A stretch of 57,717 bases of DNA, the filler included, from Candidatus Desantisbacteria bacterium CG1_02_49_89 (GTDB taxonomy: Bacteria > Desantisbacteria > UBA1551): the NCBI GenBank assembly GCA_001871075.1. It is 3 parts of 3 records of this genome, joined end to end, with 100 filler letters (N's around TTAATTAATTAA, not from the genome) between each part and the next. Parts side by side here need not be neighbours in the genome. Positions count along the whole stretch, not along the records: positions 1 to 18,883 come from MNUP01000150.1; 2 more parts are not named here. One strand, given 5' to 3'. Made by a program: the position numbers and the translations under genes. Position 1 is the first letter of the stretch. Each line of letters opens with the position of its first letter. A model generated the notes under the pieces. It saw only the letters and a list, made by a program, of their open reading frames with translations. It made no database searches and was not told where the DNA came from. Below, in pieces: positions 21 through 14,908 of this stretch.

Positions 21-2567
21 TTGATAAGTTGCGCGTCAGCGCAGGTCTCGGATACGAATTCGTTTTTTTCAATCGCTGAGACTTCTGCGTTTGCTGATGG
101 GGTAGCCAGGTTTTCCGTTAATATTTATATAAGGGACGCGAATAATCAGCCCCTACAGGAAAAAGAAGTAACTATTATTACTTCAAGGGGTTCTGATTAT
201 GATTCAATTGTCCAGCCGGCAATTACAAATTTATCTGGTCAGTGCACCGGATACATAAGTTCGATAAACGGCGGATGGGATACGGTTGCGGTAGTCTGTG
301 ACCTGAAAACCATAGGAAGTCCTTTCCAGTGGATTCAGACAAATCAGGAGGATTTCAGTAAGGGAGAAACAGCAGTTGGTATTGACACAACGTCAATTCC
401 AGGTAGTTTAAAATTGATAGTGAGTCCAAAGGACGCATGCCAAGAAACTCTTTTTGGAGATGATAGTATAAGCCGTCAAGATGAATGGATGGCACAGAGC
501 TTTCAGGTTAATAAAAATTGCATATTGGATTATATCCAGTTAGATTTGAACAGAACAAATGCTGATGTTACTGGTACATTGGTTGCATCAGTCTGGGTTG
601 ACAGTGGCGGCAGTCTAGGTAATACAATTACTACATCAGACACAATCAATGTTTCAGATTTGGTGCCTTTTCAACTTAATCATGTAGACTGGTATTTTTT
701 GAATTTTCCTAATAAGGCTAATTTTTCAGTTAATACTATTTACTGGTTACAGTTAAAAGTTCTAGCTATTTCTGAAGGTATAGGAGGAATAGGTTTTGGT
801 TTCGTGAATAGTAATAATTATAATAATGGTAATATGAAGAGTTATACTATAGTATCTGGCGAACAAAATTTTCCAAATAATGATTATGTTTTCAGAATTT
901 TTATTAAAACATCATCAGCTGGAACCTTTGTATCCCAGTCTAGTTTATTCGAAACTGTTCCCATTGCGTGGGGAAAGCTGGAAACAACCCAGAGCTTAAA
1001 TAGCGAAACCGCAATTTATACAACATACGCATCAGACGACGGGATAAACTGGGACGCAGGCACGGATATTTCTCCAAGCAATGATATTCTTTCAGCAAGA
1101 AAAAGATACATAAAATGGCAGGCTGACCTGCAGACAGACAATACTGACGTAAGCCCAGTTATCGAAGAGGTTGTTGTTAATTATTTCGCCCCTGCAAATA
1201 TTTATTTCGTTCCGGCGTTCAAGCTTATAAACCTATCGGCAAACCCCAGAAATTTCAGTCCAAATGCTGATGGAGCAAAAGATACAATAGCGATTAGCTA
1301 CAAATTGATAGATAGCAATCCACAGGATACAATAAGTGTAAGGATATATAATCTTGCACATAACCTAAAAAGAACACTGATAAACCATATTCTGCAGGAT
1401 ACGGGCACTCATTCTGTTGAATGGAATGGTAGAGACGATATAAATGACATTGTCACGGACGGAACCTATTCTTACGAAATTACTGCTGAAGATTCGATTG
1501 GTAACTCTGTGACTGAATCAGGAACCGTGGTTGTGGATACAGTAAAACCAATGCCGGCGATCGCGGGCGTAGCCCTGGGAAAGCTGCAGGTAGGGTTGAA
1601 GTACGCGTTTGACGAGGCGATCGATACCTGGCAGGTGTTCCGCAGTATAGGGGATACAGCCGGTTTCACGCTTGCGGGAAGCGGAACAAACGAGCCCGAA
1701 TGGCTTGACACAGGGCCTCTCGGGAACGACCAGAAATATTTCTACTTTTTGATTGCCACTGACCTCGCGGGAAACACGAAAGTTACGAATACGGCGCGCG
1801 CTATACTCACCCTTGAGGGCGGTATTTTAAGCAACATGGGCATATACGCGCTTCCGAATTCAGCCGTCAAATGCAAAGATATCGCGAACGCGTATATTGT
1901 GGTCCTTGAAACCCAGACATTCGGCAACACGGCTGACCTTATTAAGATCGAAATGGCAAGAAAAGAGAAACTAACACTGGAAGCTGAAGGCAAGCTGATG
2001 CCGGTTGACAAAAAGCTTGTGGGCGCCTACGAGATAAATGCTTTTGAGGTGGATGGCGGGTACAATAAAATAAGCGCGATAAAGAACTGGCAGGCCGGCA
2101 AACCAATAAAACTGGTTTTATGTTACGACTCCTGCCCGGCAGGTAAAGAAGGCACGCTTTCCATTTATGAGTGGAGCGGGAAACAGTGGGTGGGCCTTGG
2201 CGGGGATGTGGCGCAGTCAACCCAGACGATCTCCCTTGACGTGAACCATTTCTCGACCTACGCGGTTATGTACCAGAGCTTAAGTGCTTTTGTGGGGGCA
2301 AAACCCAACCCGTTCTCGCCCAACGGGGACGGCATCAATGACCGGGTTGAGATAAGGTTTGATAATCCCGGCACCGAGGAAGTGGAATTTTTTGTTTTTG
2401 ACCTGACAGGGACGACCGTTAGAACGGATGTTTATCCCGCGGGAACCGCGTCTATTTTCTGGGACGGCAGGGATGAGGGCGGGAGGGTCGTGGAAGGCGG
2501 GGCGTATATCTGGCAGGTGGAGATGGGGACAAGGGCGGTGAACGGGGTTGTTGTTGTGGCGAAATAG
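21..2567 (+). CDS. Large secreted/surface protein with Ig-like (invasin-type) N-terminus, FlgD Ig-like domain and a C-terminal PNPFSPNGDG (CHU_C/T9SS-B-like) sorting-type domain; true start may lie upstream of the window
   Basis: 848-aa ORF; ADG...I.IRDANN.P Ig-like motif; NPRNFSPNADG..D and PNPFSPNGDGIND...WDGRD.GG..V.GG.Y motifs typical of FlgD-Ig/CHU_C domains. Confidence 0.75.
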   Translation: MISCASAQVSDTNSFFSIAETSAFADGVARFSVNIYIRDANNQPLQEKEVTIITSRGSDYDSIVQPAITNLSGQCTGYISSINGGWDTVAVVCDLKTIGSPFQWIQTNQEDFSKGETAVGIDTTSIPGSLKLIVSPKDACQETLFGDDSISRQDEWMAQSFQVNKNCILDYIQLDLNRTNADVTGTLVASVWVDSGGSLGNTITTSDTINVSDLVPFQLNHVDWYFLNFPNKANFSVNTIYWLQLKVLAISEGIGGIGFGFVNSNNYNNGNMKSYTIVSGEQNFPNNDYVFRIFIKTSSAGTFVSQSSLFETVPIAWGKLETTQSLNSETAIYTTYASDDGINWDAGTDISPSNDILSARKRYIKWQADLQTDNTDVSPVIEEVVVNYFAPANIYFVPAFKLINLSANPRNFSPNADGAKDTIAISYKLIDSNPQDTISVRIYNLAHNLKRTLINHILQDTGTHSVEWNGRDDINDIVTDGTYSYEITAEDSIGNSVTESGTVVVDTVKPMPAIAGVALGKLQVGLKYAFDEAIDTWQVFRSIGDTAGFTLAGSGTNEPEWLDTGPLGNDQKYFYFLIATDLAGNTKVTNTARAILTLEGGILSNMGIYALPNSAVKCKDIANAYIVVLETQTFGNTADLIKIEMARKEKLTLEAEGKLMPVDKKLVGAYEINAFEVDGGYNKISAIKNWQAGKPIKLVLCYDSCPAGKEGTLSIYEWSGKQWVGLGGDVAQSTQTISLDVNHFSTYAVMYQSLSAFVGAKPNPFSPNGDGINDRVEIRFDNPGTEEVEFFVFDLTGTTVRTDVYPAGTASIFWDGRDEGGRVVEGGAYIWQVEMGTRAVNGVVVVAK
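2497..2566 (+). repeat. 70-bp direct repeat, copy 1 (3' end of the secreted-protein gene)
   Basis: GCGGGGCGTATATCTGG...GTGGCGAAATA matches 5817-5886 with one mismatch. Confidence 0.95.
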
Positions 2568-2597
2568 CAGCACAGGGGCAAGTGACCAGATGCAAGA

Positions 2598-2623
2598 TGT
2601 CCCAAAGGGATCCCTTTGGGACA
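2598..2623. repeat. Perfect 26-bp palindrome TGTCCCAAAGGGATCCCTTTGGGACA
   Basis: Read directly; related palindrome TGCCCCGAAGGGACTCCTTCGGGGCA at ~30585-30610. Confidence 0.85.
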
Positions 2624-2671
2624 AGCGAAAGAATTGGAAGAGAGCTCTAATCTTATTTCAGGAGGGAGAGC

Positions 2672-2992
2672 ATGGAAAAGAATGATGATCTGAAAGTACA
2701 ATCGCTGGCTCAAAAAATTAAAGAGAAATTTAACCCGCAAAAAGTAATCCTTTTTGGCTCACATGCAAACGGTGCACCTGCAAAGGGAAGCGATATAGAC
2801 CTTCTAATTATTATGAACACAAATCTTAAGCCCTACAAGCAAGCTTCTTTGATCCGCATGTTTCTAGATGATATATTCGGAGTGAACTATCCTATTGACA
2901 TTATTGTAAGAACTCCTGAATCAATAGAAAAAAGGCTTAAAGAAGGAGACTTTTTCATCAAGAATATCCTGGAAGAGGGAGTGCCTCTGTGA
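2672..2992 (+). CDS. Minimal nucleotidyltransferase (MNT) antitoxin
   Basis: LFGSHA.G.....SDIDLLII motif; 106 aa; overlaps the downstream HEPN start. Confidence 0.9.
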   Translation: MEKNDDLKVQSLAQKIKEKFNPQKVILFGSHANGAPAKGSDIDLLIIMNTNLKPYKQASLIRMFLDDIFGVNYPIDIIVRTPESIEKRLKEGDFFIKNILEEGVPL

Positions 2993-3378
2993 AGGATTTA
3001 ACAAAGGAGTGGGTAAATAAAGCTGAAAAAGATTTTCAGGTGGCTAAGAGAGAGTTTGCTGCAAAGCCACCAGAATACGATGCAGTTTGCTTTCATTCTC
3101 AGCAATGTGTTGAAAAATATATGAAAGCAGTTCTTCAGGAAAACAATATCTTTTTTGAGAAAACCCATGACCTTGATGTTCTGTTGGAAAAATGCAAAGC
3201 ATTTATTCCTGGATTAGCAGGTTTAAAGCAAGAATTGGTAGAACTTTCTTCATTTGCTGTAGAAATCCGCTATCCGGGGGCAGAAGCAACAGGGGAGGAA
3301 GCAGAAAAATACTTATCAGTTGCTGAAGCCGTAAGAAAAATTATTCGCACCTATTTAAAACTTACAACTGATCGTTAA
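2989..3378 (+). CDS. HEPN domain protein (MNT-HEPN pair)
   Basis: W..KAE.D..A; CFHSQQCVEKY.KA; KTHDL; RYPG motifs; paired with MNT. Confidence 0.9.
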   Translation: MKDLTKEWVNKAEKDFQVAKREFAAKPPEYDAVCFHSQQCVEKYMKAVLQENNIFFEKTHDLDVLLEKCKAFIPGLAGLKQELVELSSFAVEIRYPGAEATGEEAEKYLSVAEAVRKIIRTYLKLTTDR

Positions 3379-3389
3379 AACCATTTTAG

Positions 3390-3993
3390 CAAAATTATGA
3401 TTTAACCCCCCGCGGCTTGCCGCGGGGATACAAATCATCATTACCTGAAGGGGAGAAGAGGGGAAACAGGGTGTTTCCCCTCATCCTTAAAGGGTTGCCG
3501 AGGTGTAAGTGGGAATGAGGCAAGGAGCCCACACGCAATGGGAATGCAGGTATCACGTGGTGTGGTGCCCAAAATACAGGAAAGATATCTTTATAAATGA
3601 AGGATTGCGAAGCTATACTTGGGAACTTTTCAAGAGGATAGCCAGAGAATATGACATCAACATCGAAGCCATGGATATTGCGGAGGATCACGTTCATATG
3701 CTGATAGAGATACCGCCAAAACTGTCTGTGGCAGACGTTGCGAGAACATTCAAGAGTATCAGCGCAAGGGAAATCTTTGAAAAGTTCCCAAGCCTGAAGA
3801 GCAGATTGTGGGCCGGGGAATTGTGGAAAGACGGCTATTTCTTGAAAAGTGTGGGTTCCGAGGTAACAAGAGAAATGGTGAAAAAATATATAGATAGCCA
3901 TTGGGAACGGGAAGGCAACCCTGCGCAGCTTCGGCTCGATTTCAAGCCGAAGCGAGCATAAGACTCCCCGCGGCTTGCCGCGGGGTAATTCAA
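3390..3993 (+). mobile_element. IS200/IS605-family element carrying tnpA only (604 bp)
   Basis: Identical subterminal hairpins CCCCGCGGC-TT-GCCGCGGGG at both ends; left flank TTTAG; right end TTCAA; no TIR or TSD; the copy at 56458-56503 gives the same boundaries. Confidence 0.9.
3509..3961 (+). CDS. tnpA: IS200/IS605 Y1 (HUH) transposase
   Basis: YHVVWCPKYRK, DHVH (HUH), LW..GYF, KYI catalytic Tyr; start could be ATG 3515. Confidence 0.95.
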   Translation: MGMRQGAHTQWECRYHVVWCPKYRKDIFINEGLRSYTWELFKRIAREYDINIEAMDIAEDHVHMLIEIPPKLSVADVARTFKSISAREIFEKFPSLKSRLWAGELWKDGYFLKSVGSEVTREMVKKYIDSHWEREGNPAQLRLDFKPKRA

Positions 3994-4135
3994 AATTGCT
4001 TCATCGCCAGTGCGAATTCGTAAAGATAGTGAATGGCGTGGTGGCGGTGGCAAAGCAAGAACCCGAGCCTTCGGCTTAAAACCTTGTTTTTCGTAGGTGA
4101 AATCGTAGGTCCAGCAAAATAGAATAACAACGAAT

Positions 4136-5668
4136 ATGAAGAATAGTAGTAAAACAGACCGAAAATTCATGAAGATTGCCATAGAAGAAATGCTCCTATC
4201 GCGATCAGAACATGCCCAAAAACCGGATCCGATGGTTGGGACTGTATTGGTCGACAAAAGCGGAAAGGAATTAGGTAGAGCTCATCGTAGTATATTCACA
4301 CCAGGAGATCATGGAGAATTTTCAATTCTTGAAAAAGTAAGACCTGATATAGATCCTTCTGGTTGTACATTATACGTAACTTTAGAGCCATGTACTGAAA
4401 GAGAGAATCCAAAGAAAATACCTTGTGCTCAAAGAATAGTTGAGAAAAAAATTGACCGCGTAGTAATTGGTATTTTAGATCCTAATCCTAAAATTTGTGG
4501 TTTTGGTAAATCATATTTGGAGAACTATGGTATAAAAGTTAATTTTTTTGACAAAGATCTTGTAGAAGAAATTAGGATCTGGAATAAAGACTTTATAGAT
4601 TTTATGCAAAATAATAAACAAAAGTTGGAGGGTAGTATGAGCAAATTAGAAGATATAGAACTACCTTCTCAAGAAGAACAGAAACCATATAGCGATGCTA
4701 CTATTAAAGATTTCTCAAACGAAACAATTAAAAAGTATATGAAATATCGGTCAGATATTTCATATACTGTTCCCTCTAAGGAATTATGGACTTTTTTCAG
4801 AAAAAATAGATATCTTGTTAAAGGGGATAAAGGAGACGTACCCACTTTGGCTGGAATTGTACTATTCGGAAAAGATCCGAGTATTTTTATTCCAGAACAT
4901 AGAATTTTAGCTGAGTGTTTTGGTGGAACCCCAGAAAATGGAGCATCAACCGACAAAACCATCGGGAATGGTAAGAAAAATATTACCGGTCCATTATTTG
5001 AGATGACAAAAACCGCTGAAGATTTTTATAAAACGCATATACGAAAGGTACCTTTAATCAAAGGCTTTCAGAGAGTAGATGAAGAGCTTGAATATCCTAA
5101 GGAAGTAATCCGAGAGGCTATCGTGAATGCCTTAGTTCATCGGGATTATAGACTGGGTGGTCATATTTCATTCCAAATATTCAGAGATAGAATTGTAATA
5201 AAGAATCCCGGAAGTATTCTTCGCCCTAATACCATAGAGCGCATGAACTCTTTTGATGTGACTCCTGCTAGACGAAATCCAATAATAGCCGAAGCCGCTG
5301 AGAAAATGATGTTAATGGAGAAAAAGGGAAGAGGTATTCCCGATATGTCTGATCAATTGCAAAAATACGGACTCCGTCCACCGAATTTTGCCTATGATGG
5401 ATATTTAATTGTAACTTTATATGGGAGGGAGAAAACACCCCCTGAATACAGGATTCAGAAAGAGTTCCGTTCTTCACTTACAGATAGACAGTTAAAAATT
5501 CTTAATTTCATCTGGGAACAGGGAAGAGTTAATAGTGAGGAAACAACAAAGAAATTTGATATTACCAGAGAGACTGCAAACCAAGACTTCAGGAAATTGT
5601 TGAAACTTGGTCTAATAGAGAAAAAAGGCACCGGAAGAGCCACTTACTATATCTTGGGTAATATTTAA
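4136..5668 (+). CDS. Fusion of a Zn-dependent (RibD/CMP-type) deaminase, an HATPase_c_4-like ATP-binding domain and a C-terminal winged HTH
   Basis: HGE...TLEPC........PC and DPNP deaminase motifs; REAIVNALVHRDY, NPG, RNP.IA, G.GI motifs; C-terminal LT.RQ..IL...wHTH...G.GR.T.Y. Confidence 0.85.
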   Translation: MKNSSKTDRKFMKIAIEEMLLSRSEHAQKPDPMVGTVLVDKSGKELGRAHRSIFTPGDHGEFSILEKVRPDIDPSGCTLYVTLEPCTERENPKKIPCAQRIVEKKIDRVVIGILDPNPKICGFGKSYLENYGIKVNFFDKDLVEEIRIWNKDFIDFMQNNKQKLEGSMSKLEDIELPSQEEQKPYSDATIKDFSNETIKKYMKYRSDISYTVPSKELWTFFRKNRYLVKGDKGDVPTLAGIVLFGKDPSIFIPEHRILAECFGGTPENGASTDKTIGNGKKNITGPLFEMTKTAEDFYKTHIRKVPLIKGFQRVDEELEYPKEVIREAIVNALVHRDYRLGGHISFQIFRDRIVIKNPGSILRPNTIERMNSFDVTPARRNPIIAEAAEKMMLMEKKGRGIPDMSDQLQKYGLRPPNFAYDGYLIVTLYGREKTPPEYRIQKEFRSSLTDRQLKILNFIWEQGRVNSEETTKKFDITRETANQDFRKLLKLGLIEKKGTGRATYYILGNI

Positions 5669-5816
5669 AGGAACTATCTGCATAGTCATTGCGTCAGGTT
5701 TTCGTCAGGTTTTCGTCAGGTTTCAATAATGGATTTTTACGTCAGATTTACGTCAGGTTAACAATGACTGGTATCCCCGTATTACTTTACTTAATAGGAT
5801 ATAAAAGCATATCTGA

Positions 5817-5886
5817 GCGGGGCGTATATCTGGCAGGTGGAGATGGGGACAAGGGCAGTGAACGGGGTTGTTGTTGTGGCGAAATA
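5817..5886 (+). repeat. 70-bp direct repeat, copy 2 (orphan copy of the secreted-protein 3' end, followed by TAA)
   Basis: Matches 2497-2566 except G>A at 5857. Confidence 0.95.
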
Positions 5887-5896
5887 AAACTCGTTC

Positions 5897-5925
5897 GTCC
5901 CGCCCAGCAAGATTGGCGGGCAAGC
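5897..5925. repeat. 29-bp REP-like hairpin GTCCCGCCCAGCAAGATTGGCGGGCAAGC
   Basis: Identical copies at 8688-8716 (inside a CDS) and 48525-48553. Confidence 0.9.
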
Positions 5926-6085
5926 TGTGCATCGCCTGCCCTCGCGTTTTGCTTTCGAAGAAAGCAGCAGAGGGTAACATCGTGACATCGTAAAAAATCA
6001 TTTTGACACTGATTTTCACTGATTTATCCGTGAAAATCCGTGCTAATCCGTGGTTAAAAGTAGTTCTTTTCGTGGTAAAAGATAA

Positions 6086-8296
6086 ATGTCTGACAAACCG
6101 TTATACGTCGCTTTTATTTGGCATATGCACCAGCCGCTTTACAAGAACGGCGTGGCAGGAAAATATCTTCTTCCCTGGGTAAGGATGCACGGGATAAAGG
6201 ATTATTTTGATATGGCAGCGATCCTTGAGGATTACCCGAACGTCCGCCAGACATTCAACCTTACGCCGGTGCTGATGATGCAGATCGAGGACTACGTTAA
6301 GAACAAGGCAACTGACGCGTTCCTTGACATAACGATGAAAAAAGCGGAAGGGCTGGCGAAAGAGGACAAGGAGTTCATACTCTACAACTTCTTCATGGCG
6401 AACTGGGACAACATGCTTGGCAAATGCCCCAGATACCTTGAGCTGCTTGACAAAAGGGGCAGGCAGACCACGCGGGAGCAGGTGGCAAAGATCACAGGCA
6501 ATTTTTCAACGCGGGATTATCTTGACCTGCAGGTTCTTTTCAACTTAGTGTGGTTTGACCCGATGTTCCTTGAAAAAGAGCCGTTGCAGCAGCTTATCCA
6601 AAAGGGCAGGGATTTTACGGAGGAAGACAAGGCCGCAGTCATAAAAAGGCAGGTAGAAGTGCTTGCGATGATAATGCCTGAATACAGGAAACTTCAGGAC
6701 GCCGGGCAGATAGAGGTTACGACAAGCCCTTTTTACCACCCCATACTGCCGCTTGTGTATAATACGGACATAGCCAGGATCCCGTCTTCCAATATCCTCC
6801 TGCCCAGGAAAAGGTATTCCGCCCCTGCGGATGCGCAGAAGCAGATCGAGAAAGCCGTAGAGTTCTACAAGGAGCGGTTCGGCAGGCAGCCGCAGGGAAT
6901 GTGGCCCTCTGAGGGAAGCGTGAGCGGGGACGTTCTGCCGCTGATGGAAGGCGCGGGAATAAAATGGACGGCGACAGACGAGGGAATACTTGAAAACTCT
7001 TTGAAAAAAACAATCTCGAAGGATACCCGCGGCAACGTGCTTAACCCGGACCTGCTCTATAAGCCATACAGGTTCCAGTGGAACGGCCGCCATATAGACA
7101 TGATCTTCAGGGACCACACGCTTTCTGACCTGATCGGTTTCAGCTATTCGAAGTGGAAGACGGAAGAGGCTGTCAGCGATTTCATCAGAAGGCTGGAGAC
7201 CATAAACGAAAAAACTTTAAAAATACCGGGCGATTTTCTCGTGCCGATAATACTTGACGGGGAAAATGCCTGGGAGCACTATCCCAATGACGGCAGGGAT
7301 TTCCTGAAAGGGATCTACGCGAAGCTCAATTCTCACCCGTCCATCAAGTGCGTTACGGTCTCGGAGTTCCTGGGCGCGAGGAAGTTCGTGGACACGCTTC
7401 CGGCGCTTTCCCCGGGTTCGTGGATAAACAGGAATTTTGACATTTGGATAGGGGACGAGGAAGAGAACACGGCCTGGGATCTTCTCGGCAGCGCCAGGGA
7501 ATTCCTCGTAAGTTACGAGGCGGAGGTTGACGGCGGATCATCCGGGCAGGAGAAAACCGCGCAGCTTGCGGGGGCATGGGAGGAGATATACGCGGCTGAG
7601 GGAAGCGACTGGAACTGGTGGTACGGGGACCAGCACACAAGCGGTTTTGACGAGGCGTTCGATTTCCTTTACAGGCAGCACCTTTCAAATGTTTACAAGG
7701 CAGCCGGGGCTGAGCCTCCGGCGTACCTCAACGAATCCATAATTCTCCCGGCAAAAGAGAGCATGCCCGAAACAGAACCGGTGGACCTGCTTCGGCCGAC
7801 CCTTGACGGAGTTGTTACGGATTATTACGAGTGGATCCCCAGCGGCTGCTACGAAATAAGAAAGACCGGCGGGACCATGCACCAGGCAGAGAGCATAGTA
7901 AGGGCGATCTACTACGGTTTTGACATGGAAAATATATACCTCAGGCTTGACATGCACCTTCGGGATGCGGATGCAGGTAAACGCGAAGACGTCCCGGCGC
8001 TTTCTTTCATCCTAAATTTTATTTCTCCTAAGATGGTCCAGCTGAAGTTTTCAACGGAAGACAAGGACCTTCTGATCGCGGACCAAGGCGAAAGAAGGCT
8101 TGGGGCGATAGCGGCAAAGAAGATCATAGAGATCAAAATGCCGTTCGCGGACCTGGGCTTCAAAATGAAGGACGAGGTCAAATTTTCCGTGTCGGTAATG
8201 AGGAACGGGGCTGAAATGGAGCACTGGCCCAGCCGCGCACCCATAACGTTCACGCTGCCGTCCCCGGACTATAAATTAGAGCACTGGTCCGTTTGA
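6086..8296 (+). CDS. Glycoside hydrolase family 57 (amylopullulanase-like)
   Basis: WHMHQP, HPILPL, GMWPSEG, LDGENAWE, AEGSDW.WW motifs. Confidence 0.93.
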   Translation: MSDKPLYVAFIWHMHQPLYKNGVAGKYLLPWVRMHGIKDYFDMAAILEDYPNVRQTFNLTPVLMMQIEDYVKNKATDAFLDITMKKAEGLAKEDKEFILYNFFMANWDNMLGKCPRYLELLDKRGRQTTREQVAKITGNFSTRDYLDLQVLFNLVWFDPMFLEKEPLQQLIQKGRDFTEEDKAAVIKRQVEVLAMIMPEYRKLQDAGQIEVTTSPFYHPILPLVYNTDIARIPSSNILLPRKRYSAPADAQKQIEKAVEFYKERFGRQPQGMWPSEGSVSGDVLPLMEGAGIKWTATDEGILENSLKKTISKDTRGNVLNPDLLYKPYRFQWNGRHIDMIFRDHTLSDLIGFSYSKWKTEEAVSDFIRRLETINEKTLKIPGDFLVPIILDGENAWEHYPNDGRDFLKGIYAKLNSHPSIKCVTVSEFLGARKFVDTLPALSPGSWINRNFDIWIGDEEENTAWDLLGSAREFLVSYEAEVDGGSSGQEKTAQLAGAWEEIYAAEGSDWNWWYGDQHTSGFDEAFDFLYRQHLSNVYKAAGAEPPAYLNESIILPAKESMPETEPVDLLRPTLDGVVTDYYEWIPSGCYEIRKTGGTMHQAESIVRAIYYGFDMENIYLRLDMHLRDADAGKREDVPALSFILNFISPKMVQLKFSTEDKDLLIADQGERRLGAIAAKKIIEIKMPFADLGFKMKDEVKFSVSVMRNGAEMEHWPSRAPITFTLPSPDYKLEHWSV

Positions 8297-8561
8297 ATAC
8301 AGTGTCATAGCATCAGAATTTCGTAGGGCAAGCCTTTTCGAAGACCCGCCAATTATTTAGGAGGGAGGCTTGCGATAAGTTGATAAGTGGATAAGTAGAT
8401 AAGGATAGCCGCAACCTTCAGGTTGCGTATCATTGCGACCCGCTAATATTCATGGCGGGGAAGCAATCCGGTTTTTAATGCATGACGATGCATCCGCCCA
8501 TTTAAAAATGGGCGAGACCTCGCCCCGATGGTTATCGGGGCGGGCGATGAACGAGGGAACA

Positions 8562-9164
8562 ATGATTATAAAGACCGTAACCGTGGGCGAGCTGGCTACG
8601 AACTGCTACATAGCAGGCGACGAAAAAGGCGTTGTGATCATCGACCCCGGCGCCGACTCCCCGCAAATCCTTAAAACAGTGTCCAGTGTCCCGCCCAGCA
8701 AGATTGGCGGGCAAGCCCAGTGGCCAGTGGCCAGCGTAATACTGACGCACGCGCACCCCGACCACATAGGCGCTGTGGATGAGGTCGCGGGAAAGCTGAA
8801 ATGCCCGATATACATGCACGGCTTGGACTCTGACTGGCTGAAAGGGATCTTCGGCAGCAAATTCCCCGGCCTGCACGTGGTTGAGGAGGGCGGGATCATA
8901 AAAGCGGGCGGGGTGCCGTTTACGATCCTGCATACCCCGGGGCACAGTGAGGGAAGCATATGCCTCTATAACGAAAAAGAAAAGGTACTTTTCAGCGGGG
9001 ACACGCTTTTCGCGGATGGCACAGGCAGGACAGACCTTCCCGGAGGGGATGAAGAGAAAATGACGGCGTCCCTTAAAAGGCTTCTCGCTCTGCCGGCGGC
9101 AGTAACGGTTTATCCGGGCCACGGGGAAGCGGCGCTGATAAGTGAGATACGGGGAATGCTTTAA
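8562..9164 (+). CDS. MBL-fold metallo-hydrolase (glyoxalase II-like) with an in-frame repeat insertion
   Basis: THAHPDH, HTPGH, FSGDTLF, PGHG motifs; ATG 8562 follows a GAGGG RBS. Confidence 0.9.
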   Translation: MIIKTVTVGELATNCYIAGDEKGVVIIDPGADSPQILKTVSSVPPSKIGGQAQWPVASVILTHAHPDHIGAVDEVAGKLKCPIYMHGLDSDWLKGIFGSKFPGLHVVEEGGIIKAGGVPFTILHTPGHSEGSICLYNEKEKVLFSGDTLFADGTGRTDLPGGDEEKMTASLKRLLALPAAVTVYPGHGEAALISEIRGML

Positions 9165-9308: not shown

Positions 9309-10280
9309 ATGGAAGACACAGAGCTGATAAACGAGTTCATAAACTTCATAAGCGTGGAAAGGGGCCTGAGCAGGAACACGCAGGTTTCGTACCGCATTGA
9401 CCTGAAAGGTTACGAGGCCTTCCTTAAAAAAAGGGGCCTGGGTTTCAAAGGCGCGGGCCAGGAGGACGTGACGGAATTCCTGCGCGCTATGCAGTCAGGC
9501 GGTTCCCTGACCTCAACGCTTGCGAGGAAGCTGGTTGCGGTTAAGATGCTGCACAGGTTTTTGACAAACGAAGGATACGCGGATAAGGACCCCACAGCGT
9601 TCCTGGACCCGCCCAGGAAGGAAATGCGCCTTCCTTCTGTCTTGAGAAAAGACGAGGTGGAGGCGATACTGGGCAAGCCTGATCTGTCAAAGCCTGCGGG
9701 CCTGCGGGACAAAGCCCTGCTCGAATTGCTCTACGCGACCGGGATGCGCGTGTCTGAAGCCGCGGACCTGCGCGTGGAAGACCTGAACCTGGCCGGCGGT
9801 TTTATCAGGTGTTTCGGCAAGGGAGGCAAGGAAAGGATCATCCCGGTAGGCGGCAAGGCAGTTGAAGCGGTCGAGGCATACCTAAGTGTCCAGTGTCCAG
9901 TGTCCAGTGTCCAGCCAAAGAAAAACCCGAAACCCGAAACCCGAAACCCCCCTGCTTTTGCAGGAAAGCAAGAAGGGGGACTCGCTTTATGCGGCCCGAA
10001 ACAGAACTACTTATTTATTAATCCCAGAGGGAGCAGGTTCAGCAGGCAGGGGCTGTGGGGAATAGTAAAGAATTACGTAAAAAAGGCGGGCATAACAAAG
10101 AAGGTCACGCCGCACACGTTCAGGCACTCTTTCGCCACGCACCTGCTTCAGGGCGGGGCTGACCTGCGTTCCGTGCAGGAAATGCTGGGGCACGCGGACA
10201 TATCCACGACCCAGCTGTACCTGCACCTGGACAGGCAGACCGTCCAGGACGCGTATAAGAAATTTCATCCAAGAGCGTAA
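9309..10280 (+). CDS. xerD: Site-specific tyrosine recombinase XerD, with a repeat-derived insertion
   Basis: ERGLS.NT..SY..DL, LYATGMRVSE, GKG.KER, HTFRHSFATHLL..GADLRSVQEMLGH..ISTTQ.Y, HPRA C-terminus. Confidence 0.9.
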   Translation: MEDTELINEFINFISVERGLSRNTQVSYRIDLKGYEAFLKKRGLGFKGAGQEDVTEFLRAMQSGGSLTSTLARKLVAVKMLHRFLTNEGYADKDPTAFLDPPRKEMRLPSVLRKDEVEAILGKPDLSKPAGLRDKALLELLYATGMRVSEAADLRVEDLNLAGGFIRCFGKGGKERIIPVGGKAVEAVEAYLSVQCPVSSVQPKKNPKPETRNPPAFAGKQEGGLALCGPKQNYLFINPRGSRFSRQGLWGIVKNYVKKAGITKKVTPHTFRHSFATHLLQGGADLRSVQEMLGHADISTTQLYLHLDRQTVQDAYKKFHPRA

Positions 10281-10425
10281 ATACCGTCGGGCGTCGTAAG
10301 TCATACGTCGTATGTTTTGCGTCGTATGCGAATAAAAAATTATTGAACGTATAACGTAAGACGCTCGACATCCGACGGTCTTTAACACGTACGACGTACG
10401 ACGTTTGACGTATGACGGGGTCAGC

Positions 10426-13068
10426 ATGGAGTTGATCACTACCCATATCGGGTCGGATTTTGACAGCTTTGCTTCAATGGTTGCCGCGGAAAAACTCTAT
10501 CCCGGGGCGATGATATCTTTCCCCGGAAGCGTTGAGCAGAACGTGCGGGAGTTCCTTGCCCTGCACAAGCACGCGATCGAGATCGTGAAGCCCAAGGATG
10601 TGCCGCTGGACCAGGTGACAAGGCTGATAATAGTGGACACGAGGCTTGCTTCGAGGATAGGCGATTTCGCGAAACTGCTTGAAAAAAGCGGGCTGTCCAT
10701 CCACATCTACGACCACCACCCCCGCACCACTGAGGATCTGGCAGGAGAGGCGGGTGTCAGCGAGATAACAGGCGCCGCGTCCACTATCCTCACGAAGATC
10801 ATAAGGGACCGGAAGGTCCAGATCACGCCCCTTGAGGCGACGATACTGATCCTGGGCATCTACGAGGACACCGGTTCTTTCACGTTCGGCTCAACAACGC
10901 CGCAGGACCTGGAAGCCGGTTCCTACCTGCTGGGTTGCGGCGCGAACCTGAACATAGTGTCGGATTTCGTGAATCCCGGCCTGAACCCCGAGCAGGTGAA
11001 GCTCATGAACCTGCTGATGGCGAACCTTAAGATGGAGACCGTCAACGGCATAAAGGTGGCGCTTACCTGGGCTGACGCGGGGGAACAGAGCGGCAGCCTT
11101 TCGCTTGTGGTGCACAAGCTGCGGGACATGGAAAATTTCAACGTGCTGTTCGCGGTCGTTAAATTCTCAAACCGCATCCAGGTGATAGGCAGGTCACGCC
11201 TGGAAGAGGTTGACGTGGGGAAGATACTCGAACTGCTGGGCGGCGGAGGCCACTCAAGGGCGGCGTCCGCGAAAATAGAAAGCCAGGACATAAACGAAGT
11301 CAGGGAGAAGCTTTACAGGGCGCTGAGGATGAAGATCAAGCCGCTCATACAGGCCCAGAAGATAATGGCAACGCCTGTGCGGACCGTCCAGGAGGACCTT
11401 TCTGTGGGGGAGGCAAGAAGGCTCATGCTGAGGTTCAACTTTTCAGGTCTTCCCATACTTAACAAGGAAAAGCTTACGGGGATAATCTCGCGCACGGACC
11501 TTGACAGGGCAAGCCAGCACGGGTTCAGGGAAGCCCCGGTAAGGGATTATATGACAAGCCGGCCGATAACCATAGGCCCTGACGCCAGCCTTGAGGAGAT
11601 ACAGACGCTTATGATATGCCATAATATAGGCCACCTGCCGGTTGTTGACAAGAAAGGCAGCCTGCGGGGCATGGTCACCAGGGGGGAGCTCCTGCGCATC
11701 CTGCACAACGAGAAGAACCAGGTTTTTTCCCTTTACTCCTCGCCGCTTGTGAAGAAAAATCTGAAATCCCTGATGGAGAAAAAACTCCCCCAGTTCCTGC
11801 AGAAGATCCTCAGAAAGATAGGCAGGACCGGGGAACAGCTGGGTTACCCCACTTTTGTGGTCGGGGGTTTTGTGCGCGATCTGATGCTGGGGATCGAGAA
11901 CCTGGACATAGACATAGTTGTCGAAGGGGACGGCATAAGGTTCGGCAAAGAGCTCGCGAAGAAGGCGGGCGGCAGCTCTTTAACGCACGAGGCTTTCGGC
12001 ACCAGCATTGTTACTGTTGAAAACCTGCCAGCGGCCTGGAACCTGCGCCTTGAAAAGCCGCTGAAGATCGACATAGCCACCGCAAGGATGGAATTCTACG
12101 AGTATCCCGCGGCCCTGCCCAAGGTGGAGCTCAGCTCGATAAGGCAGGACCTTTACAGGCGCGATTTTACCATAAACGCCATGGCGATACGGCTTGACAG
12201 GAGGCGTTTCGGGGAGCTCTACGATTTCTTCGGCGGGGAGGACGACCTTGCCAAAAAGAGGATAAGGGTCCTGCACAACCTCAGTTTCGTGGACGACCCA
12301 ACGAGGATCTTCCGCGCGATAAGGCTTGCGGCGCGCTTCGGTTTCGAGATAGACAGGCAGACACTCTCGTTCATACGCAACGCCCTGGACCTTGCCATAT
12401 TCGACAAGCTGACCAACGAGCGGATAAGAGAGGAGCTGATACTGATATTTGAGGAATCTGAGCCGGTCAGGGCGGTAAAACAGATGGAGGCGCACGGCAT
12501 CCTGTCCTGCATACATCCGGGCATAAAATTCACTGAGGGCATGTCCGAGCAGCTGCGCGGCGTCGACGACGTGTTTTCCTGGGCGATACTCTACAGCCGG
12601 GAAAAGATCCAGAAGTGGCTCATATACCTTTTAGTCCTGATGAAGAACCTTAAGGATGAAGAAGTCCTGGAGGTCGCGGACAAATTCAAATTTCCGCTTG
12701 ACGTCCGGGGGATCATACTGCGCGTCCCGGAGGTCGCGGGGGTTGTCAGGAAGCTTTCCCGCAAAGGGCTCAAGCCCAGCGGCATACACAGTGCCCTTAA
12801 AGGATTCCCGCCTGAAATACTGCTTATGATCATGGCCGTTTTTAAAAACCCCGTGGTCAGGAAGCACATCGGCTTTTATTTTTCCAAAGCCTCCGCGGCG
12901 TGCCTGAAGCTGGACGGCGAGAAGCTGAAAAGCATGGGCCTGAAACCCGGGCCTGAATTCAGGAAGATAATGGGCTCGGTCCTTAAGGCCAAGCTGGACG
13001 GGAAAATAAGGGACACGCTTGAGGACGAAATAAGGTTCGTGCGCGCGAAATGGCTCCCTAAGAAATAA
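10426..13068 (+). CDS. tRNA nucleotidyltransferase with N-terminal DHH/DHHA1 and CBS domains (A-adding/CCA-adding type)
   Basis: DHH and GGGH motifs, CBS pair, VGGFVRD..LG..DID, DLYRRDFTINAMA, DDPTR. Confidence 0.9.
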   Translation: MELITTHIGSDFDSFASMVAAEKLYPGAMISFPGSVEQNVREFLALHKHAIEIVKPKDVPLDQVTRLIIVDTRLASRIGDFAKLLEKSGLSIHIYDHHPRTTEDLAGEAGVSEITGAASTILTKIIRDRKVQITPLEATILILGIYEDTGSFTFGSTTPQDLEAGSYLLGCGANLNIVSDFVNPGLNPEQVKLMNLLMANLKMETVNGIKVALTWADAGEQSGSLSLVVHKLRDMENFNVLFAVVKFSNRIQVIGRSRLEEVDVGKILELLGGGGHSRAASAKIESQDINEVREKLYRALRMKIKPLIQAQKIMATPVRTVQEDLSVGEARRLMLRFNFSGLPILNKEKLTGIISRTDLDRASQHGFREAPVRDYMTSRPITIGPDASLEEIQTLMICHNIGHLPVVDKKGSLRGMVTRGELLRILHNEKNQVFSLYSSPLVKKNLKSLMEKKLPQFLQKILRKIGRTGEQLGYPTFVVGGFVRDLMLGIENLDIDIVVEGDGIRFGKELAKKAGGSSLTHEAFGTSIVTVENLPAAWNLRLEKPLKIDIATARMEFYEYPAALPKVELSSIRQDLYRRDFTINAMAIRLDRRRFGELYDFFGGEDDLAKKRIRVLHNLSFVDDPTRIFRAIRLAARFGFEIDRQTLSFIRNALDLAIFDKLTNERIREELILIFEESEPVRAVKQMEAHGILSCIHPGIKFTEGMSEQLRGVDDVFSWAILYSREKIQKWLIYLLVLMKNLKDEEVLEVADKFKFPLDVRGIILRVPEVAGVVRKLSRKGLKPSGIHSALKGFPPEILLMIMAVFKNPVVRKHIGFYFSKASAACLKLDGEKLKSMGLKPGPEFRKIMGSVLKAKLDGKIRDTLEDEIRFVRAKWLPKK

Positions 13069-13126
13069 CTGCGTGTCAGCGTATCAGCGTATCAGCGTGT
13101 CAGAGCAAAGGCAAGGAATTTAATTG

Positions 13127-13173
13127 CCCGCCCCTTTGGGGCGAGGTCTCGCCCCGATGGACATCGGGGCGGA
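13127..13173 (+). repeat. Double-hairpin element with invariant core GGCGAGGTCTCGCCC
   Basis: Further copies at 8493-8545 (reverse), 37430-37474, 37506-37559 and 42551-42604; stems and loops vary but stay paired. Confidence 0.85.
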
Positions 13174-13379
13174 TAACTCAGGGCTTCAGCCCTGATATTA
13201 CTTAATGCACTCAATGGCAAGTATTTATCCGTCTGCATCCCGCCTCATCGGCGGGTCGCCGTAGTGGCGACCTTGGTCGCCCTGTTTAAAGCTCCTTATT
13301 CCCCTTAATAATCATCTTTAAATAATCACTGTAATCATTTTAAAAATCACCGTAATCGTATCAAATAAAGGAGATAAAA

Positions 13380-14609
13380 ATGAATAAAGAATTTCTGGAA
13401 GTGCTCAACCAGATTGAGAAGGAAAAAAGAATACCCAAGGAAAGGCTGCTTGCGAACCTTAAGGAAGCCATAACGTCGGCATACAAAAAAAGTTTCGGTT
13501 CGTCCCACAATGCCGAGGTGGACATAGACAGCGAAACCGGAAAGATAAAGATAACGTCCAACCAGGCCGTTGTGGAAGGCCCGTCAAAGCCCGGCTTGGA
13601 AATAACGCTTGCGGACGCGCGCAAAATAAAGCCCGGAGTGAAAGCCGGGGACAAGATAGACGTGGACGTTCCCCTGGAAGACTTCGGCCGCATCGCGACC
13701 CAGGTCGCCAAGCAGGTCATAATGCAGAGGATACGCGAGGAAGAAAGGGTCCTTGTGTACCAGGATTTCAAGCCCAAGGAAAAGAACCTTCTCACGGGCG
13801 AGGTCCGCCACAAGGACGCGCGCAATAACTACCTTCTTGACATCGGCGGGCACGAAGCCATCCTGCCGGTTAACGAGCAGGTGAAGACAGAGCGCCTGAA
13901 TTTACGCGACAGGGTCAAGGTTTTTCTTCTTGAGGTTAAGAGGACGTCAAAGGGACCGGTCATATACGTTTCGCGCACCCACCCGGAGCTGCTTAAAAGG
14001 CTTTTCGAGCTGGAGATCCCGGAAATACACGAAGGCGTTGTGGAGATAAAAGGCATAGTAAGAGAGCCTGGGACAAGGGCGAAAGTCGCGGTGTTCTCGA
14101 ATAATGAGAAGGTTGACCCCCTTGGCGCCTGCGTGGGCATGAAGGGACTGCGCATACAGGCAATTGCCAGGGAAATGGGAGTGGAAAAAATAGACCTTGT
14201 CCGCTGGAACGAAGATATCGGGACCTACATCCTGAATTCCTTAAGCCCGGCGAAGTCGCAGGAAATACACCTGGACAAGGACAACAAGCGCGCAACAATA
14301 CTGCTGGAAGACGAACAGCTGAAACTGGCGATCGGAAAGAAAGGGCAGAACGTAAGGCTTGCCAGCCGGCTGACAGGATGGCAGATAGACCTGAGGAAGC
14401 GGGAGGAGATCGTTTCCAACCTGACGTCCCTTCCCGGGGTGGGAGAGTCAACCGCAGGCGCCCTGATGGAGGCGGGTATAAGGAGGATAGAGGACCTCGC
14501 GAAGGCGACCCCGGAACAATTGACTGAGGTGAAGGGCATAGGCGAAAAGAAGGCGGAAAACCTTATAGACGCGGCAAAAAGGCACGTTCAGATAGCGAAA
14601 AGCAAGTAA
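13380..14609 (+). CDS. nusA: Transcription termination/antitermination factor NusA with C-terminal HhH domain
   Basis: FGRIA.Q.AKQVI.Q, VSRTHP, REPG.RAK, GACVGMKG.RI, LAIGKKGQNVRLA. Confidence 0.97.
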   Translation: MNKEFLEVLNQIEKEKRIPKERLLANLKEAITSAYKKSFGSSHNAEVDIDSETGKIKITSNQAVVEGPSKPGLEITLADARKIKPGVKAGDKIDVDVPLEDFGRIATQVAKQVIMQRIREEERVLVYQDFKPKEKNLLTGEVRHKDARNNYLLDIGGHEAILPVNEQVKTERLNLRDRVKVFLLEVKRTSKGPVIYVSRTHPELLKRLFELEIPEIHEGVVEIKGIVREPGTRAKVAVFSNNEKVDPLGACVGMKGLRIQAIAREMGVEKIDLVRWNEDIGTYILNSLSPAKSQEIHLDKDNKRATILLEDEQLKLAIGKKGQNVRLASRLTGWQIDLRKREEIVSNLTSLPGVGESTAGALMEAGIRRIEDLAKATPEQLTEVKGIGEKKAENLIDAAKRHVQIAKSK

Positions 14610-14641
14610 AATATTTTAACCACACGATTTTCACAGAGGGT

Positions 14642-14865
14642 GTCATTGCGATCGTAGAGCCATCTGCCTAGCTCTGGCTCGAAGACCCCCGTGTTAAGTT
14701 CCGGCTGTAGGGTCATAGACTTAGCTCTGACCCGAAAGTCCCTGCGTTGCCCGCCAATATTTGTGGCGGGGCAGGGATCGGAACTACAGGGGGAAGCATT
14801 TTGAGGTGACGAAGCAATCCCGCTTGGATTGCCACGCCCCGTATAAAATCGGGTCTCGCAATGAC
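14642..14865. repeat. Four-level nested palindromic repeat cluster
   Basis: Outer GTCATTGCGA...TCGCAATGAC encloses two GTAG-type elements and an inner CCCGCCA..TGGCGGG hairpin. Confidence 0.8.
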
Positions 14866-14908
14866 CGCAAAATATAAAATAAAAATTTATTTGTAAAGGG
14901 GAAATAGC

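Follow-up and report, generated by a model that had tools for sequence, protein, structure and literature searches.

The locus discussed here raises the question of what a zinc-dependent deaminase is doing at the head of a protein whose body usually carries a nuclease. The gene lies within a stretch of 57,717 nucleotides (the window) from Candidatus Desantisbacteria bacterium CG1_02_49_89 (GCA_001871075.1), in which three contigs are joined with N spacers between them, and it is located on the first contig (positions 1-18883; Table 1). It encodes a 510-residue protein, designated P0001, that has a RibD-like deaminase domain followed by a GHKL-type ATPase module and a C-terminal winged helix-turn-helix (wHTH). 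The interpretation that we favour, with a probability of roughly 0.55, is that P0001 is a stand-alone, mobile conflict protein, most likely anti-phage, with an ATP-gated and DNA-docked deaminase derived from RibD; in structural terms, it would be a 'Schlatpase-HTH' scaffold on which the Schlafen tRNase head has been replaced by a catalytically intact RibD-like deaminase.

A deaminase on a Schlafen-type body

The open reading frame (ORF), the Pfam matches, an AlphaFold2 model and Foldseek superpositions all agree on the deaminase-HATPase_c_4-wHTH fusion that had been proposed in a first-pass annotation of the sequence. A Pfam scan of P0001 gives dCMP_cyt_deam_1 (PF00383) at residues 6-112 (E = 2e-13), HATPase_c_4 (PF13749) at residues 341-422 (E = 6.8e-21; 74.5 bits against a cut-off of 26 bits), and HTH_DeoR at residues 451-496, where HTH_24 and MarR matches are also found. 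The AlphaFold2 model, based on a 112-sequence alignment, has a mean predicted local distance difference test score of 94.0 and a predicted template modelling score of 0.72; its winged helix consists of three helices followed by a beta-hairpin (residues 450-507), with a recognition helix that reads approximately ITRETANQDFRKL. Foldseek superposes the C-terminal ~350 residues on DIP2311 (3lmm_A; E = 1.7e-14, 353 columns) and the head on the deaminase halves of RibD (2hxv, 4g3m and 2b3z; root-mean-square deviation 2.3-2.8 Å, 152-155 columns, 29-34% identity).

DIP2311 (PDB 3lmm; AlbA_2-PF13749-wHTH) is the solved example of the class to which the body of P0001 can be compared. According to the accessible text of a recent preprint, the combination of Schlafen and PF13749 is a supradomain called 'Schlatpase', most members being small proteins that may or may not end in an HTH (bioRxiv 10.64898/2026.05.29.728809). 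The HTH-bearing form corresponds to the 'HisKinase-HTH' class of prokaryotic Schlafen (pSlfn) proteins, which is given as 19.2% of all such proteins in the text available from Perez Taboada et al. (PMC13056530). P0001 resembles this class in its middle domain, GHKL ATPase and winged helix, in its invariant ATP-site residues (E327...N331), and in its occurrence as a single gene in restriction or toxin-antitoxin (TA) islets without a fixed partner. Unlike the class, it lacks a Schlafen/AlbA_2 nuclease head with the Ex4(E/D)xK motif: P0001 has no PF04326 match at E ≤ 0.01, and residues 6-160 are instead a zinc deaminase of the cytidine deaminase (CDA) fold. Because the deaminase replaces the AlbA_2 head, the predicted effector chemistry is deamination rather than RNA cleavage. 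PADLOC models for proteins associated with prokaryotic Argonautes (pAgo) and of the Schlafen-pAgo type (SLFN-pAgo, or extra-long pAgo) match residues 176-459 of P0001 (6e-17 to 1.5e-15), which ties its body to the pAgo-associated group.

Invariant positions are found in both the head and the ATPase. Across the 112 sequences these comprise H59, E61, E84-P85-C86 and C97 of the deaminase, and R326, E327, N331, H335, R336, Y338, G359, N381 and G400 of the GHKL module, a pattern that suggests selection for catalysis. The zinc motifs are H59-G-E61 and P85-C86-x9-P96-C97, and hence intact as initially described, except that nine residues rather than eight separate the two PC pairs.

The change of head is one of a series. 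The genome (2.48 Mb, 93.5% complete) contains 12 matches to P0001, and nine further PF13749 proteins were scanned for their N-terminal domains. Seven start with SLFN_AlbA_2 (PF04326), as would be expected of the usual occupant of this slot, one starts with DUF4062 (contig C52), and one is a second deaminase fusion (contig C73) that is 30% identical over residues 8-507. The DUF4062-GHKL gene (C52:8969-10111, + strand) reaches the contig end, its C-terminus and any 3' boxes lying beyond. An exhaustive search of 50%-identity representatives returned 213 proteins at E ≤ 1e-30, and 40 of these were hand-picked for a Pfam scan. Bodies that are 31-41% identical to the C-terminal two thirds of P0001 bear DUF4062 (P0144, P0219, P0221, P0225 and P0235), TIR (P0251) or AlbA_2 heads (P0237 and P0244). 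Four kinds of head, namely Schlafen, DUF4062, TIR and deaminase, are therefore found on a single conserved body, which bears out the effector swap first proposed from P0001 alone; three of the four are established or suspected immune effectors. The nearest C-terminal relatives are the DUF4062- and TIR-headed GHKL-wHTH proteins (P0219, P0235, P0251 and the copy on C52), which have the same length and layout as P0001 and differ from it in the head.

Deaminase-headed proteins are themselves numerous. Among 119 other listed clusters at 90% identity, 110 have both PF13749 and PF00383 (30-67% identity), while seven shorter ones have PF13749 only and two have DUF4062; sources of the fusions, by name, include Bathyarchaeota, Methanophagales, Thermoplasmata, Ignavibacteria, Rokubacteria and Udaeobacter. 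Within a broad genome sample, the full-length fusion occurs in 4 of 400 other genomes (~1%); the host phylum is represented by only two genomes of the collection. A scan of viral contigs yielded 24 loci that match the deaminase head only, and no full-length fusion. For comparisons of genomic setting we used 13 loci, several of them short or mutually related: the window, the C73 paralogue, four loci from the 400-genome sample and seven metagenome contigs.

The head and its relation to RibD

Two questions about the head are (i) whether it is simply a RibD, and (ii) what kind of substrate it might accept. Its best solved relatives in a sequence search of the PDB are RibD deaminase halves (E = 2e-15 to 3e-13), and TadA and cytosine deaminase match far less well (1e-6 vs 2e-14 for RibD). 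Pfam Inv-AAD also matches (33.5 bits), as does MafB19-deam (27.6 bits against a cut-off of 27 bits), the latter being outscored by dCMP_cyt_deam_1 and RibD. With RibD/RibG (TIGR00326; 2b3z, 4g3m, 2hxv and 9no2), the head has in common the zinc site (HxE and PC...PC) as well as the DPNP loop and the contacts to phosphate and ribose. Unlike RibD, P0001 has no reductase domain, as had been noted at the outset: the Pfam scan gives no RibD_C match, and the NCBIfam RibD equivalog TIGR00326 scores 68.1 bits against a cut-off of 156.35, aligning only over model positions 9-139 of 343, i.e., the deaminase half. A complete RibD is encoded elsewhere in the genome (contig C81; 386.5 bits, compared with 69.5 bits for P0001 in the same scan).

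The separation from RibD is also evident phylogenetically. A quick maximum-likelihood tree was constructed from 81 domains excised with a profile of the fusion heads, and comprised 30 fusions (22 hand-picked from the 110 clusters and eight from the loci), 32 reductase-less relatives, 18 proteins with a RibD-reductase-like C-terminus, and one TadA-like outgroup from the same genome. Matches to the profile scored 180-251 bits in the fusions, 138-196 in the remaining reductase-less proteins, 76-94 in RibD and 31.5 in the outgroup. The 18 RibDs form a single clade on a long branch (Shimodaira-Hasegawa-like approximate likelihood ratio test, 99), and the fusions group outside it with 31 of the 32 other reductase-less relatives (support 88). 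Within the other reductase-less group lie two of the fusions, L027 and P0110 (support 95), and the head has therefore moved between bodies at least twice. The conserved histidine in the CxxC insert, described as the signature of the RibD clade in the accessible text of Iyer et al. 2011 (PMC3239186), is absent from the head; the aligned position is E88, which is variable in the family, and the neighbouring R89 is at least 90% conserved. Judged from its sequence, then, the deaminase is not a housekeeping RibD. A role in the riboflavin pathway was considered and rejected, on the grounds, among others, of the gene neighbourhoods, the patchy distribution and the genome's own complete RibD. The first-pass annotation had regarded homologues in riboflavin operons as evidence against its own interpretation, and families of riboflavin synthesis are found among the scanned neighbours at none of the 13 loci.

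As to the substrate, the available text on BsRibG describes K79 as binding the substrate phosphate, and D101 and N103 as binding the 2'- and 3'-OH of the ribose (PMC8256712). These residues align with K93, D115 and N117 of the head (alignment to 2b3z_A, chain offset 12). K93 and D115 are at least 90% conserved in the 112-sequence alignment, and N117 is so only in a 30-sequence alignment, because a distant subgroup carries D at that position. With the equivalents of these three aligned residues kept, a ribose-5'-phosphate-linked small molecule is the preferred candidate substrate, and the head probably acts on a ribonucleotide-like small molecule.

The reductase-less relatives of the head (L104, L034, L105, L106, L033 and L032) are 38-46% identical to it by BLASTP and are fused to unannotated domains. 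Nine loci with such relatives were examined for their setting. One lies in a prophage with terminase, portal and integrase genes (L104), and another in a conjugative element with a TrwC relaxase, a coupling protein and an integrase (L034); two adjoin integrases (L033 and L106), L105 and L106 are near TIR or AlbA_2 genes, and one relative adjoins a thymidylate-kinase-like gene. No PADLOC model claims these proteins, the sole contact being one graze of the dCTPase model. They look like a separate, undescribed family of mobile-element deaminases.

DNA boxes behind the gene and the islet around it

Short DNA boxes form an array behind the gene. The motif CGTCAG(G/A)TT is present there five times in direct orientation, at 5692, 5703, 5714, 5740 and 5751, in an 11-bp phase and with the first copy 24 nt past the stop codon; the copies are flanked by the inverted repeat AGTCATTG (5684-5691) and CAATGACT (5762-5769). 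The box occurs 47 times in the 2.48-Mb genome (38 expected), and the array is its sole cluster. Arrays at other loci were measured as copies of any 8-mer, with at most one mismatch and on either strand, in the 130 nt after the stop. By this measure, 10 of the 12 fusion loci with downstream sequence have at least four copies, a count reached in 0 of 100 shuffles for each of them, and the remaining two (C73 and L134) have three copies, reached in 25 and 35 of 100 shuffles. Typically, an array consists of a triad (+,+,-) with steps of 11-12 bp that is present twice, ~60 bp apart; in the window and at L027, all copies are direct.

As a control, 92 other ORFs of the same loci were measured, minus two that read the fusion's array from the other strand. 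At least five copies are found for 8 of 12 fusions and 3 of the 90 control ORFs, and at least four copies for 10 of 12 and 21 of 90. One-sided Fisher tests give 3e-7 and 9e-5, respectively, values that are overstated because some loci are kin. Because 21 controls reach four copies, only the threshold of five and the layout carry weight.

The sequence of the boxes varies among loci and co-varies with the recognition helix in three pairs of relatives. P0001 and L027, with recognition helices ITRETANQDFRKL and ITRVTANADFKKL, have CGT(C/A)AG boxes in common; L023 and L132, whose helices read xRTAxNHL, have ATCGC(G/A)CCA boxes; and L024 and L135 have ATC(N)GGCCA boxes. Short repeats directly after the stop codon are likewise found for the AlbA_2-GHKL-wHTH paralogues of the same genome (contigs C100, C147, C7 and C44). 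Because other head types carry boxes too, the array belongs to the wHTH rather than to the deaminase, and it looks like a general trait of wHTHs of this type. The winged helix would be predicted to bind the boxes, and possible roles of such docking include autoregulation, a block to transcription, or an inactive, parked state. We also note a Fic-wHTH (SoFic-like) protein of the same genome (C103:6795-7844, - strand), whose gene has three perfect 12-bp direct repeats (GGTTGGCGATTA) directly after its stop codon.

Table 1. Features of the fusion gene and its islet, in window coordinates.
Feature	Position	Strand	Basis or remark
Left copy of 70-bp direct repeat	2497..2566	+	Left islet edge; pair 99% identical
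MNT gene	2672-2992	+	NTP_transf_2 7.6e-13; MntA-type match
HEPN gene	2989-3378	+	HEPN 3.9e-28; toxin-antitoxin pair with MNT
IS200-type insertion with terminal hairpins	3393..3990	+	Hairpins 3405-3427 and 3963-3985; ends multi-copy in genome
IS200 transposase gene	3509-3961	+	Y1_Tnp 4e-40; transpos_IS200 3e-44
Deaminase-GHKL ATPase-wHTH gene (P0001)	4136..5668	+	Open ORF, 510 aa; Pfam; AlphaFold2 model
RibD-like zinc deaminase domain, residues 1-166	4136..4633	+	Solved relatives, fold match, conservation, tree
H59/E61 codons	4310-4318	+	Deaminase motif H59-G-E61
C86 codon	4391-4393	+	Zinc-site residue of deaminase
C97 codon	4424-4426	+	Zinc-site residue of deaminase
Linker helix and middle alpha/beta domain, ~residues 170-320	4644..5095	+	Common to Schlafen-, TIR- and DUF4062-headed relatives
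GHKL (Bergerat-fold) ATPase module, PF13749	5096..5455	+	Pfam 6.8e-21; invariant residues
ATP motif REAIVNALVHRDY, residues 326-338	5111-5149	+	Translation
C-terminal winged helix-turn-helix	5468..5665	+	HTH_DeoR, HTH_24 and MarR matches; model; helix-box co-variation
3' DNA-box array	5684..5769	+	Within islet; probable wHTH binding site
Right copy of 70-bp direct repeat	5817..5886	+	Right islet edge; pair 99% identical

The gene and its boxes are bounded by a 70-bp direct repeat of which the genome holds just these two copies, the left one being the 3' end of an upstream gene for an 854-residue Ig/CHU_C surface protein. From this unique pair, and from the way the left copy ends the surface-protein gene, we conclude that a 3,320-bp islet of low GC content was inserted there, with MNT-HEPN, an IS200 element, the fusion gene and its boxes as contents. 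The GC content is 35.7% for the fusion gene, 37.1% for MNT and 37.4% for HEPN, compared with 49.7% for the contig; the AT-richness of the gene and its proximity to MNT-HEPN and an insertion sequence (IS) had been remarked in the first-pass annotation, which made no mention of the box array, the deaminase paralogue, the RibD-type ribose and phosphate contacts or the repeats that bound the islet. The IS200 copy arrived later, between the HEPN gene and the fusion gene, and the MNT-HEPN pair is not kept beside homologues of the fusion. No recombinase gene is found within the 3,320 bp. A XerC/D-type integrase gene is present at 9309-10280 of the window, and the remainder of the contig is housekeeping (GH57, NusA and IF-2).

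A candidate islet-free joint (2629 to 6026), present in all four DNA runs, was rejected: each time it was seen in one contig, just 33 letters of which lay to one side, and both sides of the joint are short palindromic or repeated elements with 30-67 copies in the genome. Intergenic elements of this kind, resembling repetitive extragenic palindromes (REP-like; ~30-67 genome copies), are located at 2598-2623, 5897-5930 and 6026-6060. The 10-bp repeats at 6007-6052, before the GH57 gene, belong to one of them.

Genes of defence type (restriction, TA or abortive infection) neighbour the fusion at 7 of the 13 loci. These neighbours are MNT-HEPN in the window; a type III restriction-modification (R-M) system with a PDC-S73/Mrr-nSTAND3 protein and an Old/AriA-like ATPase (L030); HsdS immediately upstream and overlapping the start of the fusion (L023); TaqI_C and an HNH protein (L027); an SfiI endonuclease and methylase (L132); AbiEi/AbiEii on the upstream side with a type IIG fragment on the downstream side (L133); and a RelE-like/HTH pair (L135). 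An all-against-all BLAST of 427 neighbour ORFs from the 13 loci revealed no conserved partner, the only neighbours in common being DNA methylases and, for the related L023 and L024, RadC.

Several of these loci have features of their own. The L030 copy (9977-11460), ahead of the type III R-M operon, is frameshifted near residue 215 and is either a pseudogene or an assembly error. At L132, a 447-residue ORF of 23% GC without a family match (5559-6902, + strand) lies between the fusion and the SfiI-type R-M pair. The C73 locus (L016) has the paralogue at 7513-9033, followed by five same-strand ORFs (656-7258, - strand) of 175, 136, 107, 412 and 1056 residues, none of the five with a Pfam or PADLOC match, and at 11795-15976 (- strand) a GyrA gene whose intein holds a LAGLIDADG homing-endonuclease domain.

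Possible function and its alternatives

A plausible mechanism can be drawn from the Argonaute-linked relatives of the body. For the Schlafen-Argonaute RzAgo, the accessible preprint text reports that ATP is bound by PF13749, where Mg and the gamma-phosphate are held by E314 and N318, and that this binding drives the formation of tetramers in which the Schlafen heads come together as an active nuclease (10.64898/2026.05.29.728809). For P0001, we infer an ATP-gated assembly, an enzymatic activity, a substrate, a trigger and protection along the following lines. The winged helix would dock the protein on its private box array, immediately 3' of the gene that encodes it; once bound by the GHKL module, ATP would drive oligomerisation, an effect that has been demonstrated for this module in SLFN-pAgo, and the deaminase heads would thereby be joined into an active multimer. 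Deamination by the heads would follow, on a small molecule of aminopyrimidine or purine type that is linked to ribose-5'-phosphate (a nucleotide or a metabolite resembling one), a guanine-type 2-amino group being one candidate target, and the depletion or poisoning of the pool would halt growth of the infected cell or the phage. A more specific version, speculative and on balance quite unlikely, is that the protein is a DNA-tethered immune enzyme parked inactive on its own iteron array until infection activates it, either through ATP-driven assembly of the GHKL modules or because the tether is lost; the RibD-derived deaminase would then convert a guanine-type ribonucleotide (GMP/GTP to XMP/XTP), or a metabolite made from GTP, by removing its 2-amino group. 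Deamination of a guanine-type 2-amino group is not among the deaminase defence systems found in our literature searches.

Deaminases that act on nucleotide pools are known from anti-phage defence, as in the dCTP deaminase of Tal et al. (bioRxiv 10.1101/2021.04.26.441389), AvcD (PMC10511110), RADAR RdrB (PMC9994260) and Cad1 (PMC11645235). By its proposed logic P0001 would resemble these systems, insofar as the accessible texts describe them, in having a nucleotide-deaminating effector that is held off until infection, and also in being compact or single-gene and found in defence islands. Its head is RibD-like, however, rather than of the dCMP/dCTP type, and its nearest solved structures are those of RibD and not of dCMP deaminase; the PADLOC dCTP-deaminase model gives only E = 0.0063 and 13.4 bits with no stretch passing, and the Pfam scan shows no kinase domain in P0001. 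The dCMP/dCTP-type domain of the anti-phage dCTP deaminase and AvcD is joined to an N-terminal kinase-like or P-loop domain, and the adenosine deaminases RdrB and Cad1 have a different fold. Where the described systems have a kinase-like domain, an RNA antitoxin, an AAA+ partner or CARF, P0001 has a GHKL ATPase and a wHTH with private boxes. It differs also from the polymorphic-toxin deaminases (MafB19, DddA-like), whose toxin domain is C-terminal in a protein that is secreted or delivered and has an immunity gene beside it, in that its deaminase is N-terminal, the protein is of a cytoplasmic type, and no neighbour is conserved.

The same defence-type scaffold might instead carry a deaminase that edits a polynucleotide, whether tRNA, another RNA, or DNA near the wHTH site. 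The head falls in the helix-4 division, which in the accessible text of PMC3239186 also includes TadA and AID/APOBEC; it is matched by Inv-AAD and MafB19-deam; the protein has a DNA-binding domain; and Schlafen heads on this scaffold cleave tRNA, to which TadA offers a further analogy. We consider such editing unlikely, given the much weaker TadA and cytosine deaminase matches and the retention of RibG-type contacts for a free ribose 2'/3'-OH and 5'-phosphate. The alternative TIR and DUF4062 heads also argue against it, both being of a type that annotations or reports connect with small-molecule substrates. Nor are the boxes the deaminase target, because they accompany every head type. A different alternative gives the protein no defensive role: it could be a selfish maintenance or addiction module, or a factor with which mobile elements counter defence or compete, with the boxes and wHTH serving in tight autoregulation and the deaminase acting as a toxin upon loss of the element. 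Consistent with this, the fusion is always a single gene with its own boxes, occurs in islets, near IS200 copies or integrases and on elements, and has TA pairs as common neighbours, and the L030 copy is frameshifted, as toxic genes tend to be. The idea is nonetheless rather improbable, since no antitoxin-like partner is conserved, the Schlafen-headed version of the scaffold has a demonstrated anti-phage role in SLFN-pAgo, and embedding in restriction operons (L023 and L030) is typical of defence add-ons.

Highly improbable, in our estimation, is a metabolic one-component transcription factor, in which the RibD-like domain would sense or convert a riboflavin or pyrimidine intermediate and the wHTH would control local genes. 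Database names for the protein do read 'DeoR family transcriptional regulator', the pocket is RibD-like, and a wHTH predicted to be sequence-specific has operator-like boxes nearby. Yet the boxes are 3' of the gene and not before a regulated operon, every locus has different neighbours, and riboflavin or pyrimidine pathway families are among the scanned neighbours at 0 of 13 loci; moreover, the gene is patchy (~1% of genomes), of low GC and island-borne, the genome already has a complete RibD, and the same body bears TIR, DUF4062 and Schlafen heads.

The anti-phage interpretation of P0001 has its own difficulties. The suggestion of a candidate defence system is supported by the seven loci with restriction, TA or abortive infection genes and by the mobile settings, but no PADLOC model claims P0001 as a defence gene, the dCTP-deaminase model only grazing it (E 0.006), and 6 of the 13 loci (C73, L134, L024 and the short contigs L025, L026 and L028) have no recognisable defence neighbour, in a set of loci that are partly kin to one another. 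The closest tested analogue is the small Schlafen-GHKL class, and in the E. coli panel, as given in the available text of PMC13056530, it did not protect: of seven constructs representing four architectures (HisKinase, Ig-like, DUF262 and an unannotated one), only the DUF262 and Ig-like fusions did so. The kept ribose and phosphate contacts would suit an ordinary RibD substrate too, the equation of E327/N331 with E314/N318 of RzAgo comes from the common Pfam motif and not from a direct alignment, and arrays of four copies also follow nearly a quarter of the control ORFs. The favoured mechanism is a computational prediction.

Full-text literature searches turned up no account of the PF13749/Schlatpase scaffold with a deaminase head, in agreement with the initial view that the system is undescribed, and the word 'deaminase' is absent from PMC13056530 and 10.64898/2026.05.29.728809, supplements excluded. 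Descriptions of the DUF4062- and TIR-headed GHKL-wHTH forms were likewise not found in these searches.

The link between Schlafen-GHKL ('Schlatpase') proteins and phage defence is very recent, and the present comparison indicates that the ATPase-wHTH body of these proteins is a general chassis that also carries TIR, DUF4062 and RibD-derived deaminase heads, the last of these in at least 110 protein clusters from bacteria and archaea. The co-variation of the 3' arrays with the winged helix offers a testable handle on the role of the DNA-binding domain across the superfamily, a role that is not covered in the accessible texts of PMC13056530 or 10.64898/2026.05.29.728809. Were the tethered version of the mechanism true, a tether-and-switch body would be the general chassis for Schlafen, TIR, DUF4062 or deaminase heads. 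A RibD-like deaminase with a new substrate could also serve as an enzyme tool. If the deaminase form does protect, it would add a new enzyme clade to nucleotide-targeting immunity in a compact, single-gene system that is readily tested, and it would provide a natural series, with the same body and different heads, for studying how GHKL modules control their effectors.

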